A stretch of DNA of 64,000 nt, taken from Bacillota bacterium. Its GTDB lineage: Bacteria > Bacillota > SHA-98 > UBA4971. The position numbers and the translations under genes are program-made. Under the pieces are notes generated by a model. The model searched no databases and was not told the DNA's origin. It saw only the letters and a list, made by a program, of their open reading frames with translations. The DNA lies in assembly GCA_050261335.1 (NCBI GenBank), contig JBLNDE010000064.1:74165-138164 (forward strand), read 5' to 3'. Positions 8,513-31,870 of this stretch are shown here, one piece after another; position 1 is the first letter of the stretch; every line of letters starts with the position of its first letter.

Positions 8513-8875
8513 ATGAGGGACACGCGAGACCTGGAACGCACGATCACGAAGAGAGCGGCAATCCTAGCCATCTTGGCCGCACCGCTCCTGACTGCGGCCG
8601 GGCTTCCGCGCATGGCTCTGGGCGGCCTCGCCGGGACAGCCTTCGGCCTCGCCAGCTTCCACCTTCTGGGCGCCGCCATCACGGCGGCCGTGGCGGCCGG
8701 GCCTGTGCGAGCGTCGGCCCAGGTGATGTTCAAGTACCTCGCAAGGTACGCCCTGATGGCGCTCGTTTTGTACGGCGCGCTACGGCTGGACACCGGGATC
8801 TTCCTGGGGACGGCGGCGGGGATGGTCGTGGTGAGGTTCGTCATTCTGTTGACGGGCATCTTTGGGCCACTCTGA
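8513..8875 (+). CDS. atpI: ATP synthase protein I (AtpI/AtpZ-like small hydrophobic protein)
   Basis: Small 4-TM hydrophobic protein directly upstream of atpB; typical operon position. Confidence 0.7.
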   Translation: MRDTRDLERTITKRAAILAILAAPLLTAAGLPRMALGGLAGTAFGLASFHLLGAAITAAVAAGPVRASAQVMFKYLARYALMALVLYGALRLDTGIFLGTAAGMVVVRFVILLTGIFGPL

Positions 8876-8978
8876 GCGGGCCGCCACGAAGGCCGCGCCA
8901 CCGCGATGCGCCGGCACATCAGGCCGCGTGCGCGCCCACCCTGACAAGCTGCATCGGGAGACAAGGAGACGCAACACG

Positions 8979-9638
8979 GTGCCGTTCTTCGCAAGAACCT
9001 ATCAACTGTTTGGCTACGAGATCCCGGAGACCCTGGTGACGACCTGGGCGATCATGGCCGCGCTCATCATTGCCTCCTCCATCGCAGTTCGGGTCATGCT
9101 GTCCCACCCGGCTCAACATCCGCCGTCCGGAAAGCGGGTCATCCCTGAGCTCGTGTACGAGGCCATTCAATGGCTCGTCGATGGAACCATGGGCAGGGAG
9201 CACAGGGGGTTCATACCGTACGTCGGCACGCTTGCTCTCTTCCTCGTCGTTGCAAACCTCGTGGGGCTCATCGGCGTCACGCCACCTACTGCGGATCTCA
9301 ACACGACCCTTGCCCTTGCTACCATCACGTTCGTGAACATCCAGTACTACTCGATACGGCGAAAGGGAATCGCAGCGTACCTCAAAGGCTTCTTCGAGCC
9401 AGTGGCGTTCCTGGCCCCTTTGAACGTAATAAGCGAGATCGCCCTGCCATTCTCAATGGCGTTTCGCCTCTTCGGCAACATGCTCGGCGGGGCCATCATC
9501 ATGGGGCTTCTGTACTCGGTACTGCCGGTCCTCGTACCCGTCGTGCCCCACATGTACTTCGACATCTTCGCGGGGATCATCCAGACGTTCATCTTCGTGA
9601 TGCTTACGATGACATTCATTGCAAGGGCGATGGACTGA
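8979..9638 (+). CDS. atpB: F0F1 ATP synthase subunit a
   Basis: ...LAPLNVISEIALPFSMAFRLFGNMLGGAIIMGLL... conserved a-subunit R-containing helix; GTG start with AAGGAGAC RBS. Confidence 0.9.
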   Translation: MPFFARTYQLFGYEIPETLVTTWAIMAALIIASSIAVRVMLSHPAQHPPSGKRVIPELVYEAIQWLVDGTMGREHRGFIPYVGTLALFLVVANLVGLIGVTPPTADLNTTLALATITFVNIQYYSIRRKGIAAYLKGFFEPVAFLAPLNVISEIALPFSMAFRLFGNMLGGAIIMGLLYSVLPVLVPVVPHMYFDIFAGIIQTFIFVMLTMTFIARAMD

Positions 9639-9644
9639 TCCGAC

Positions 9645-10235
9645 ATGGACGGCATCTTCGGCGCATTCGGAGCACTCAATGTCCTGACCCACCTTGGCCT
9701 TCGGGACATGCAGGAAGTCATCAGGGTTGCAGCGGCCCACCCGCGCGCGGCGGCGCTGGCGGCGTCCGCGCTGAGCGCAGGCATAGCGATGGCTTCTGGG
9801 CTGGGCCCGGGCATCGGCCAGGGATACGCTGCCGGTGAGGCGGCCGACGCCGTTGGACGCAATCCCGCAAGGCGTTCTGAGATCACCGTGGTCATGCTCC
9901 TCGGACAGGCGGTCGCGGAGACATCCGGCATCTTCTCGCTGGTGATCGCACTACTACTTCTCTTTGCAAACCCGCTCGTGATCGGCTCCGGCCCGGCGCT
10001 CGTGAGAGCTGCCGCCAGCCTGGGCGCCGGGCTCGCGATGCTCGCTGGGATCGGCCCCGGCATAGGCCAGGGGTACGCCGCGGGCAAGGGGGCACAGACC
10101 GTGGGGCGGCGGCCCGACCTGCGCATGGAGATAACCAGAACCATGCTGCTCGGCCAGGCGATCTCGCAGACCACGGGGTTATACGGGCTCGTCATCGCGC
10201 TCGTGCTCATGTTCGCATCGCCCATCGCAGGCTGA
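9645..10235 (+). CDS. atpE1: Fused tandem (double-hairpin, 4-TM) ATP synthase c subunit; hairpin 1 has ion-binding Glu (AVAETSG), hairpin 2 has Gln (AISQTTG)
   Basis: Two consecutive GxGxGxGQGYAAG...LLGQA(I/V)x(E/Q)T(S/T)G(I/L)(F/Y) c-subunit repeats in one 196-aa ORF. Confidence 0.9.
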
Positions 10236-10296
10236 TAGTGGCCAGCGCGAGACCGCCTGTTACGGTCGGCCTGGCGCTTGGGTCGACGCGCGGGAA

Positions 10297-10316
10297 AACC
10301 ATGGGGAGCCTTCCGG
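10297..10316. terminator. Perfect 8-bp hairpin GGGGAGCC-ttcc-GGCTCCCC in convergent intergenic region after atpE1 (possible bidirectional terminator)
   Basis: Stem visible in sequence; weak U tract only on minus strand (atggtttt). Confidence 0.3.
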
Positions 10317-29881: not shown

Positions 29882-29883
29882 GT

Positions 29884-30083
29884 GGGGGCGCAGAAATGCT
29901 CCCGACTCCTGGAAGGGGTTGCCGGTGCTTGCACGAGGGGTGTCAAAGTCCGGCCACTTCCCCGACGGGCCGGAGTCTGGCGAAGCGCGCCCCGCGTGGG
30001 ACGCCGTCCCCGAGTGTAACGCCGGCAACCCTGGGTAGGACGCGCGCTGAAAAACAGCGCGGATTCGTGGCGACGTACTTACT
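29884..30083. mobile_element. MITE-like dispersed repeat, variant B, inserted between atpG and atpD
   Basis: gggttgccggtgcttgcacgaggggtgtcaaagtccggcc…ggcgaagcgcgcc…cgccggcaaccc…gcgcgctgaaaaacagcgcggattcgtggcgacgtactt. Confidence 0.85.
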
Positions 30084-30109
30084 GAGGAGTCACAGCGAGG
30101 GATGAAGGA

Positions 30110-31591
30110 ATGGGAGCGATGCCAGAAAAGCGAATCGGCGGCGAGCCGGAGGGTGCGCGCGACCATGCCCGGGGCAGGGTCGTCCAGATAATCGGTCCGG
30201 TGGTGGACGTCGAGTTCCCGGAGCACGACATCCCGGACATATACACGGCCCTCACGATCGTGGGACCGCCGCGTCCGGCACCCGAGAGCGGGCCTTATGA
30301 CGAGGCACCGGGCGAGCCCGCCCGCGTGACCCTCGAAGTCATGCACCACATAGGCAGGGGGCGGGTCCGCACGATCGCCATGTCGTCCACCGAGGGCCTC
30401 ACCCGGGACATGGAGGTCGTCAACACGGGCACGCCGATGAAGGTGCCAGTGGGCCGCGGCACCCTGGGCAGGGCATTCAACGTCCTCGGTCAGCCGATAG
30501 ACGGTCTCGGACCGCCCGAAAACGTCGAGCCCTGGCCCATTCACCGCCCGTCCCCGGAGCTTACCGAGCAGTGGACGGGAAACGAGATCCTGGAGACCGG
30601 CATCAAGGTCATCGATCTACTGGCGCCCTACCCCCGTGGCGGCAAGGTCGGGCTCTTCGGCGGCGCCGGCGTGGGCAAGACTGTGCTCATCATGGAGCTC
30701 ATCCGCAACGTCGCCGTTGAGCACGGTGGCTTCTCTGTGTTCGCGGGTATCGGCGAGCGCACCCGCGAAGGAAACGATCTCTGGCTCGAGATGAAGGCAT
30801 CCGGGGTCCTCGAGAAGACCGCCCTCGTGTTCGGGCAGATGAACGAGCCGCCCGGTGCCCGCTTCCGCGTGGGCCTGGCAGGTCTCACGATGGCCGAGTA
30901 TTTCCGCGACGTTGAAGGACAGGACGTGCTTCTTTTCGTCGACAACATATTCCGCTACATCCAGGCGGGCGGGGAGATATCGGCGCTGCTCGGGAGGATG
31001 CCGGCGGCCGTCGGCTACCAGCCCACCCTCGCAGTCGAGGTCGGGATGCTGGAGGAGAGGATCACATCCACGGCCAGAGGCTCGATCACCTCGGTGCAGG
31101 CGGTGTTCGTGCCGGCCGACGACATCACCGACCCCGCTCCGGCAACCGCGTTCGCGCACCTGGATGCGACGACCGTGCTCTCCCGAGACATCGCCGAGCT
31201 CGGCCTCTACCCCGCCGTTGACCCCCTCGATTCGACGTCCCGCGTGCTGGACCCGCGCGTCGTGGGGGACGAGCATTACGAGGTGGCCCGTGGCGTGCAG
31301 GCCGTGCTTCAGCGCTACAGAGAGCTCAAGGACATCATCGCGATCCTCGGGATAGACGAGCTTTCAGACGAGGACAGGCTCATCGTGAGCCGGGCGCGGA
31401 AAGTGCAGCGGTTCCTCACGCAGCCGCTCTTCGTGGCCGAAGCGTTCACGGGCGAGCCTGGGCGATACGTGCCGCTTCGCGAAACCGTCGAGGGCTTCGG
31501 CAGGATCATCAGGGGGGAGCTGGATGATCTTCCCGAGCAGGCCTTCTACATGGTGGGCGCCATGGACGAGGCGGTGAAGCGCGCACGGTAG
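30110..31591 (+). CDS. atpD: F0F1 ATP synthase subunit beta (with ~20-aa Pro-rich insertion near N-terminus)
   Basis: GGAGVGKTV Walker A, DELSDED motif. Confidence 0.95.
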
Positions 31592-31606
31592 TGAGGCGCA
31601 CACAAC

Positions 31607-31870
31607 ATGAGTGACATCGCTCTTCGCATTCTCACGATGACGAAGGTAGTCCTGGACGCTCGCGCCTCCTCGGTGATGCTCCCGGGATCGGAGGGAGATC
31701 TCGAGGTGCTGGGCAACCATACCCCGCTGGTGACGGCCCTTCGCCCGGGTCGCATCGTTGCCGCCTGCAACGGCGAGCACAAGGATATCCAGGTGGCCGG
31801 CGGTTTCGTGGTCGTCACGCCCCGCCGCGTCGACGTGCTGGCGGACCTTGCGGAAGTCACGCCTCGATGA
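31607..31870 (+). CDS. atpC: F0F1 ATP synthase subunit epsilon, truncated (beta-sandwich only, 87 aa; C-terminal helical hairpin absent)
   Basis: Typical epsilon N-domain; stop overlaps convergent GGDEF gene. Confidence 0.8.
   Translation: MSDIALRILTMTKVVLDARASSVMLPGSEGDLEVLGNHTPLVTALRPGRIVAACNGEHKDIQVAGGFVVVTPRRVDVLADLAEVTPR

Follow-up and report, generated by a model that had tools for sequence, protein, structure and literature searches.

Hybrid rotors, in which single-hairpin and double-hairpin c subunits share the membrane ring of an F-type ATP synthase, have been known since 1999–2014. In the parts of the literature on Acetobacterium woodii that bear on its rotor (PMC9171764, PMC7793690, PMC8904574), the operon is given as atpIBE1E2E3FHAGDC and the ring as nine single-hairpin c subunits and one double-hairpin subunit, c1, with 10 Na+ sites and 3.3 Na+ per ATP; according to a passage in one of them, assembly of this ring in Escherichia coli depends on the native AtpI (PMC8904574, citing Brandt 2013). 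The operon of Clostridium aceticum, atpIBE1E2FHAGDC, has one single-hairpin gene (c2) and a c1 with the hairpin motifs Q..ET and Q..QT (PMC7911925). Here we describe an atp locus in a 64-kb stretch of contig JBLNDE010000064.1 of a Bacillota bacterium (hereafter, the window), in which the genes for c1 (atpE1) and c2 (atpE2) are separated by 15,523 bp. The rotor type is a known one; what is new is the organization and evolution of the locus, with the rotor genes long kept apart by a purine-catabolism module and with repeated reversal of that state. Our overall reading, in which we have considerable confidence, is that a single, complete F1Fo ATP synthase of the A. woodii/C. aceticum type is encoded here, with a mixed rotor and two transcription units, and that the separation arose by insertion of the module in an ancestor and was followed by repeated deletion.

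Organization of the locus

Open reading frame calls gave the gene order atpI, atpB, atpE1, then 15,523 bp of other genes (from the stop codon of c1 to the start codon of c2), then atpE2 and atpF-H-A-G-D-C, with all atp genes on the plus strand. All eight subunits (a, c, b, delta, alpha, gamma, beta and epsilon) and AtpI were identified with Pfam and NCBIfam models, and the genes follow the F-type order I-B-E...F-H-A-G-D-C. The first gene of the operon, atpI (8513–8875, with an alternative GTG start at 8489), encodes the assembly factor; read from the ATG at 8513, its product matched PF03899 at a level under the curated cut-off (E = 2.2e-4, 22 bits), and its orthologues in the related loci L001–L004 matched the same family clearly. 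It is followed by atpB (8979–9638), which has a GTG start and encodes the Fo subunit a (PF00119, 1.8e-45), with 219 amino acids as in the relatives and with the conserved stator arginine within AFRLFGNMLGG. The c1 gene, atpE1, lies at 9645–10235 (196 amino acids) and the c2 gene, atpE2, at 25759–26031 (90 amino acids). Downstream are atpF (26097–26597), atpH (26594–27220), atpA (27217–28812), atpG (28823–29881, 352 amino acids), atpD (30110–31591) and atpC (31607–31870, 87 amino acids). The original prediction, which was made from the sequence alone, had described an operon physically in two parts, the second of them headed by a separate single-hairpin c gene; both statements were borne out by the reading frames, by the PF00137 match of c2 and by the recurrence of the junctions in independent assemblies, described below.

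The window has a G+C content of ~64%, and the samples were biogas and anaerobic-digester metagenomes. For the FtsK protein encoded in the window the closest named genus was Thermincola, whose protein was 61% identical across two thirds of the length.

The two kinds of c subunit

Two ATP-synt_C stretches were found in c1 with Pfam, and the protein aligned end to end with the A. woodii c1 in structure 4BEM (chain J), which contains nine c2 chains and one c1 chain. The match (E = 1.4e-57) had 59.6% identity over 156 ungapped residues (39–194 of c1) and placed E92 on the hairpin-1 carboxylate and Q175 on the hairpin-2 glutamine of 4bem_J, in agreement with the prediction of a tandem double hairpin in which hairpin 1 retains the carboxylate and hairpin 2 has Gln in its place. 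The site residues are Q59/E92/T93/S94/F97 in hairpin 1 and Q142/Q175/T176/T177/Y180 in hairpin 2, which has no carboxylate. In an alignment of 18 double-hairpin homologues there was no variation at E92 or Q175, nor in the NP and RP loops of hairpins 1 and 2, respectively, which indicates that the c1 fusion is one old gene family; a local frameshift or an independent fusion was ruled out as the origin of the 196-amino-acid reading frame on the same grounds. The single-hairpin c2 aligned with A. woodii c2 (4bem_A, E = 1.9e-37, 85% identity) and with the c subunit of Ilyobacter tartaricus (1yce, E = 1.5e-34), and it carries the full Na+ motif Q33/E66/T67/T68/Y71.

The Na+-binding constellation had been attributed to both site-bearing hairpins. 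This holds for the Q, E and T residues, but the position that corresponds to T67 is Ser in hairpin 1 of c1 (E-T-S-G-I-F); the alignments to the 4BEM chains agree with the prediction in having Tyr in c2 (Y71) and Phe in c1 hairpin 1 (F97). The A. woodii architecture that had been proposed for the locus was upheld by the direct alignments: the duplicated c1 with one site lost, the c2 with a Na+ motif and the F-type order are all present. There is no atpE3, and in this respect the locus is closer to C. aceticum.

Two other assignments were considered and rejected. As a V/A-type proteolipid (subunit K/c), c1 fell far short of the V-type K models (at best 51.4 bits against a cut-off of 188), scored higher with F-type c models, and has F-type neighbours in an F-type operon. 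As an N-ATPase (atpDCQRBEFAG), the locus has the wrong gene order and did not reach TIGR03322, TIGR03323 or TIGR03166: c1 and c2 scored 83 and 63.5 bits against a cut-off of 130.85, gamma scored 71 bits against 282, and for AtpR there was only a faint match (E = 0.21).

By analogy with A. woodii, the membrane rotor is most likely a mixed c1/c2 ring. We propose that it would contain many copies of c2, each offering one Na+ site through the five residues of its motif, together with about one c1, which would add two hairpins and, because Q175 replaces the carboxylate of hairpin 2, only a single Na+ site (E92). Such a ring, (c2)n(c1)1, would carry fewer ions per turn relative to its number of hairpins, as judged from the solved (c2/3)9(c1)1 ring. 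The site residues lead us to expect that the enzyme is coupled to Na+, and a Na+/phosphate cotransporter gene within the window suggests that the cell uses a Na+ gradient. It is unlikely, though by a smaller distance than for the alternatives taken up below, that the enzyme is instead H+-coupled, or that c1 stays outside the ring, such that the likeness to A. woodii would be only sequence-deep. For this clade Na+ coupling is a prediction from the genes, and Phe occupies the position in hairpin 1 of c1 at which Tyr is usual in Na+-binding c subunits; however, the A. woodii c1, which is part of a crystallised Na+ ring, has the identical segment AVAETSGIF, Phe included. Further arguments against H+ coupling are that the Q/E/T/T/Y residues of c2 match the Na+ rings of both I. 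tartaricus and A. woodii, that strong purifying selection has kept E92 and Q175 in 18 of 18 homologues, and the presence of the cotransporter gene.

Recurrence and history of the separation

Both ends of the 15.5-kb cluster were found again in other genomes. The junction of c1 with the permease gene recurs in L099 (with a c1 that is 100% identical), in L011 and L012 (91%) and in L015 (85%), which is the GTDB representative JBLNDA010000020.1. The junction of the DUF35 gene with c2 recurs in two metagenome-assembled genomes (MAGs) from NCBI (L093 and L094), in four Logan assemblies (L095–L098) and in the more diverged L100, L101 and L102. These are independent assemblies from at least five diverged lineages. 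Three related lineages, namely L008–L010, L001–L004 and L005–L007 (the last being the same lineage as L014), have c1 and c2 only 459–705 bp apart. The flanking synteny is the same with and without the cluster, with an Aminotran_4 gene upstream and PAS-GAF-GGDEF, AAA_17 and peptidase M20 genes downstream.

The ratios of nonsynonymous to synonymous substitution (dN/dS) were 0.075–0.17 for atpB, 0.065–0.19 for c1 and 0.02–0.04 for c2, with no visible difference between the lineages with and without the cluster, and the synonymous divergence (dS) between cluster-bearing lineages was 0.77–1.06. Judged by these values, both halves of the locus are functional and under purifying selection. They argue against the idea, which we consider improbable, that the split genes are those of an accessory or decaying paralogue, whose disruption would be tolerated for want of any remaining importance, and that the working ATPase, for example one of the V/A type, is encoded elsewhere. 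That idea would be in keeping with the 64 kb over which the genome is visible, with an epsilon subunit that has no C-terminal domain, and with two distant fused-c genomes (L034 and L051) in which V/A-type A and B genes stand beside the F-type operon. However, the ten reading frames are all intact in every lineage examined, and a search of the 64-kb window, to which it was confined, found no second ATPase. The one apparent case of decay, the shortened b and delta genes of L100, was rejected as such, being a run of 100 N (a scaffold gap).

The gaps between c1 and c2 in the lineages without the cluster have nothing in common except the 55 nucleotides that precede c2. In L001–L004 the gap holds 231–291 bp that match the 3' end of the permease gene and the spacer downstream of it (84–86% identity), with the c2 leader 23 nucleotides further on, whereas in L005–L007 it holds 160 bp from the interior of allG (82–84% identity), directly after the c1 stop codon. 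Relics of different parts of the cluster in two lineages indicate that the cluster is ancestral and was lost repeatedly. No relic was found in the gap of L008, even by comparison with its sister L011. In a tree of AtpA (498 columns, 200 bootstraps) the clade was monophyletic (100%), the cluster-bearing L100 and L102 were basal, and the cluster-less L001, L008 and L005 were interleaved with the window and L093 (99–100% bootstrap). In a tree of atpB and c1, L011, which has the cluster, was the sister of L008, which does not, and the cluster-bearing L015 was at the base of the clade in an unresolved position.

The most economical reading of these results is that the cluster was inserted once, in the common ancestor of a genus-level clade, was kept in at least five lineages and was deleted independently at least three times. 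We propose that the module would have entered between c1 and c2 in the ancestor of an uncultured anaerobic-digester clade of Bacillota with 64% G+C. Comparison with relatives that have c1 and c2 adjacent had been suggested as a way to recognise an insertion; an insertion did occur, in the clade ancestor, but the cluster-less relatives of two lineages carry relics and so represent deletions. This bears on the notion of a recent insertion peculiar to this one genome or strain, with the relatives that have adjacent c1 and c2 showing the undisturbed ancestral state. The three lineages with short gaps would fit it, as would the adjacency of c1 and c2 in all other surveyed fused-c species among the loci listed; but the occurrence of the cluster at the same place in at least five lineages with dS of ~0.8–1.0, the relics and the interleaving of the two states in the trees make it very unlikely. 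Although every sequence in question comes from metagenome assembly, the possibility that unrelated contigs were wrongly joined in assembly or binning can be dismissed almost entirely, given that both junctions occur in more than one NCBI MAG and in Logan assemblies made from different runs, that they also occur in lineages only 73–87% identical at the DNA level, and that flanking synteny is kept on both sides.

Expression signals of the two halves

The c1 gene starts 6 nucleotides past the atpB stop codon and has a weak Shine–Dalgarno sequence, with no GGAGG within 5–12 nucleotides. It is convergent with the permease gene, and between the two lies a GC-rich hairpin (10303–10322, −20.4 and −20.9 kcal/mol) that is terminator-like on the minus strand, with the tail AUGGUUUUCC; the terminator scan reported a single minus-strand terminator near c1. 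The 12.5 kb of the cluster that follow c1 are antisense to the atp genes, and read-through from atpI and c1 to c2 would therefore give no useful message.

On the c2 side, a 13-bp GC-rich hairpin on the plus strand (25617–25649), followed by CUUUUGGG, folded at −28.7 kcal/mol (z = −4.7). It starts 102 nucleotides past the end of the thiolase/DUF35 unit, lies 110 nucleotides upstream of c2 and is probably the intrinsic terminator of that unit; the terminator scan missed it, the loop being too long and the T-run too short for the rule of the scan. Between this hairpin and c2 is a conserved A-rich block of 55 nucleotides (25704–25758, plus strand), which abuts the c2 start codon and ends in the strong Shine–Dalgarno sequence of c2, AAGGGAAGGAGGG. 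It is the only sequence upstream of c2 that is conserved in all lineages of the clade, with or without the cluster, and its core, GAYTGGACANAGTAWA, had a single occurrence in every one of the 20 clade loci that span the region and was absent from 84 other loci. No conserved RNA structure was found in the block by consensus folding (z = +0.98 on folding), Rfam gave no match for the c2 leader at E <= 1, and there was nothing at gathering score over the whole window. The block is a candidate internal promoter and/or translation-enhancing leader for the abundant c2. On this view it would predate the insertion, and its presence would explain why the operon tolerated an interruption of 15.5 kb at this one position.

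The arrangement of these signals points to two transcription units, atpI-atpB-atpE1 and atpE2-atpFHAGDC. In the mechanism that we envisage, the first would supply AtpI, subunit a and c1, each needed about once per complex, and the second would supply c2 in many copies as well as b, delta, alpha, gamma, beta and epsilon.

Several points weigh against the overall reading as set out at the beginning. After c1, the hairpin at 10303–10322 has no U-tract on the plus strand, and c2-atpFHAGDC could be partly co-transcribed with the thiolase/DUF35 unit through the hairpin at 25617–25649. A consensus scan found no sigma-70-like promoter upstream of either atpI or c2, and no convincing −35/−10 hexamers could be fitted by eye in the 55-nucleotide leader, so that where the second transcription unit starts is an inference. 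The strong terminator and separate promoter-like region with a ribosome-binding site that had been predicted before c2 consequently stand as regards the hairpin, by folding, and the Shine–Dalgarno sequence, but not as regards a promoter, and the terminator scan was blank there. In addition, the loss of the cluster in L008, which has no relic, is read from the trees alone; the ring composition and the ion specificity are derived wholly from homology; and a view of the genome over 64 kb leaves uncovered any V/A-type ATPase or Na+ pump, such as Rnf, beyond the window.

In A. woodii the c1 and c2 genes of the hybrid ring are co-transcribed and the 9:1 ratio is fixed, and the present clade is a natural experiment on the assembly of such a ring. 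Its rotor genes have been uncoupled for a long time (dS ~1) while both remained under strong purifying selection, which implies that co-transcription is not needed to build the ring. If co-transcription is dispensable, the c1:c2 ratio would be set by translation signals (a weak Shine–Dalgarno sequence for c1, a strong one for c2) or by assembly, possibly via AtpI. The clade also offers matched natural genotypes, split and unsplit, for studies of transcription. A more speculative suggestion, to which we give little credence, is that separate promoters for c1 and c2 allow the c1:c2 ratio, and with it the number of ion sites per turn and the Na+/ATP ratio, to vary with growth conditions, as an adjustable gear. 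Were this so, the clade-specific 55-nucleotide block would be the control element, and the repeated loss and retention of the cluster would be due to selection on uncoupling and not on the use of purines.

The purine-catabolism cluster

The genes from 10518 to 22959 are all on the minus strand and were assigned with Pfam as follows: a xanthine/uracil permease (10518–11771); the molybdenum (12141–14477), iron–sulfur (14474–15025) and FAD (15047–15910) subunits of a xanthine-dehydrogenase-type enzyme; a cyclase-family hydrolase (16095–16889); allG (17136–~18545); allF/fdrA (18620–20233, also matched by NCBIfam FdrA at 4e-131); allH (20197–21132); and a PucR regulator (21259–22959). Their content and order are the same in L011, L015, L093, L094 and L100. 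They are followed on the plus strand by a trio consisting of a 224-amino-acid protein (23288–23962), a thiolase-like protein (23979–25166) and a DUF35/ChsH2-type Zn-ribbon OB-fold protein (25174–25515), the last two assigned with Pfam. The content predicted for this metabolic island was confirmed for purine catabolism, thiolase and DUF35, but the label GNAT, given to the product of 23288–23962, was dropped, as neither Pfam nor NCBIfam had a match for it.

In an unrelated genome (L103 and L104) the trio stands directly before allH-allF-allG-cyclase-amidohydrolase-permease and the xanthine dehydrogenase genes; this contiguity indicates that the whole 15.5 kb is one functional module. We rejected the description of the cluster as a mobile genomic island: its genes include no mobility gene (integrase or transposase), the window has no tRNA gene, its two flanks share no repeat of >= 9 nucleotides, and there is no jump in composition (G+C 0.61–0.68 in the cluster, against 0.62–0.66 in the flanks).

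The recurrence of the trio (23288–25515; L103:3428–5643) with allFGH and xanthine dehydrogenase genes in two unrelated genome contexts suggests that it marks an unrecognised step, dependent on coenzyme A, in the anaerobic breakdown of purines or oxamate. The DUF35 protein has 78–79% identity to proteins of Thermanaeromonas toyohensis and Moorella glycerini.

Distribution of fused c genes

To place the locus among other rotors, one genome per GTDB species was scanned with the c1 alignment, and c-type reading frames were classified in the best 80 loci, to which the counts in this section refer. Fused c genes were present in at least 43 further species genomes, including those of Fusibacter, Vallitalea, Natronincola, Alkaliphilus, Geosporobacter, Thermotalea, Acetobacterium and Epulopiscium and many MAGs. 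The original prediction had called such F/V-hybrid rotors rare, which is overstated in view of this number; the two studied examples greatly understate how common and how varied F-type ATP synthases with a fused c are in the Clostridia. A single-hairpin c gene lay 25–275 nucleotides (median 73) downstream of the fused c gene in all 42 of the other species for which downstream sequence was available, and among the loci listed only the present clade has c1 and c2 apart.

Fusions larger than c1 were also seen. Other F-type operons of Clostridia have c subunits of three, four or even five hairpins fused in one frame (L019:9659–10735, L038:9110–10486, L030:9419–10477, L027, L028, L049, L051 and L053, and the proteins P0001, P0004, P0007, P0014, P0027 and P0043), each followed by a normal single-hairpin c gene; L026 and L045 have two tandem c1 genes, also with a normal single-hairpin c gene after them. 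The carboxylate is usually in the first hairpin only, as in L019 (ETS/QTS/QTS/QTT) and L038 (ETT/QTT/QTS/QTS/QTT), and the pattern ETS/QTT/ETS/QTT was found in an Acetobacterium MAG and in P0004. In the parts of the literature that cover it, bacterial c1 is described as a two-hairpin protein only. A separate family of four-hairpin c subunits, 323–324 amino acids long, was represented by P0036, P0050, P0058 and P0064 from Desulfobacterales and "Proteobacteria" MAGs, with mixed site residues in the four hairpins (E; Q in a C-Q-T context; E or Q; E or Q).

Other features of the locus and the window

Two of the F1 subunits are unusual in length. Epsilon has 87–88 amino acids throughout the clade (window, L001–L008, L093, L094 and L100) and consists of the N-terminal beta-sandwich only, covering positions 2–82 of the 130-position model TIGR01216; it is without the C-terminal helices, which in other bacteria act as inhibitors of ATP hydrolysis. 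The epsilon of the outgroups L034, L049 and L051 is also short, at ~100 amino acids. Gamma has an acidic insertion of low complexity, rich in Gly, Asp, Glu and Arg, at residues ~196–265, which varies greatly in length within the clade, the whole of gamma having 284 (L100), 317 (L001), 319 (L008), 352 (window), 354 (L093) or 376 amino acids (L005). The insertion is presumably located roughly where the gamma subunit of cyanobacteria and chloroplasts has its regulatory insertion.

The window also contains a family of intergenic repeats of ~120–210 nucleotides that have a long palindromic stem at the base, CCAGGGTTGCCGGTGTTGC ... GCAAGCACCGGCAACCC, and a pair of hairpins inside it. Copies were located at 4496–4830, 5860–6175 (minus strand), 7226–7396, 16900–17135, 29860–30050 (minus strand), 43425–43660, 45560–45800, 47848–47941 and 49426–49494, and in the relatives at L001:10744–10916, L008:10601–10678 and L011:1–160. 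The core of the repeat had seven matches in 64 kb, where 0.05 would be expected by chance, and the folding energy of single copies was between −67 and −76 kcal/mol (z = −2.5 to −7.4). There are two subfamilies, which share the same architecture but differ in their hairpin sequences, with changes on both sides in 7 of 34 pairs, and Rfam had no match for the element at E <= 1. One copy, the palindromic element at 29874–30034 (minus strand), is between atpG and atpD, where it could affect the segmental stability of the mRNA. In the close relative L093 the same site is without the repeat and the gap is 76 bp, and the element thus looks mobile, resembling a miniature inverted-repeat transposable element (MITE) or a repetitive extragenic palindrome (REP).

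Open reading frames of 194–598 amino acids at 27–2344 (plus strand), 5209–5793, 6145–6978 and 43711–45507 had no Pfam match, those tested having none even at E <= 1; some may be spurious frames of high-G+C DNA.

Comparison with known systems

Among published gene sets, that of C. aceticum (PMC7911925) is the closest to the present locus. Both have AtpI, a c1 with the motifs Q..ET and Q..QT, a single c2 (Q..ET), no atpE3, and the F-type order. They differ in that the ten genes of C. aceticum form one operon with atpE1 beside atpE2, whereas here 15.5 kb of mostly antisense genes lie between the two; in the epsilon subunit, which here has 87 amino acids and the N-terminal domain only; in the gamma subunit, with its acidic insertion of ~65 amino acids; and in the host, here an uncultured Bacillota lineage of 64% G+C. 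Adjacency of atpE1 and atpE2, which is typical of the type but does not define it mechanistically, is replaced here by a distance of 15,523 bp.

With A. woodii the locus shares the matching carboxylate and glutamine positions of c1 (59.6% identity, ungapped, over 156 residues), a c2 at 85% identity and, in expectation, the mechanism of a ring in which one hairpin lacks an ion site. In contrast, the single-hairpin gene of A. woodii is present as two identical copies, atpE2 and atpE3, in a contiguous operon, and the 9:1 ring and the Na+ dependence were measured there, whereas here they are deduced. The V/A-type proteolipids, such as NtpK of Enterococcus hirae, the c subunit of the eukaryotic V-ATPase and the A1Ao c subunit of Eubacterium limosum/callanderi, resemble c1 in being double hairpins with four helices, and several of them have also lost the ion site in one hairpin; they differ from it in forming rings of duplicated subunits only, in V/A-type enzymes, while c1 here belongs to an F-type operon.

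Naturally split atp operons are known from cyanobacteria and chloroplasts (atp1 and atp2) and from the alphaproteobacteria, which have separate Fo and F1 operons. As proposed for the present locus, they have two transcription units and a stoichiometric complex is still formed. These known splits fall between Fo and F1 or between other subunits, in systems with one kind of c gene, whereas the split described here falls between the two genes of the rotor ring itself.

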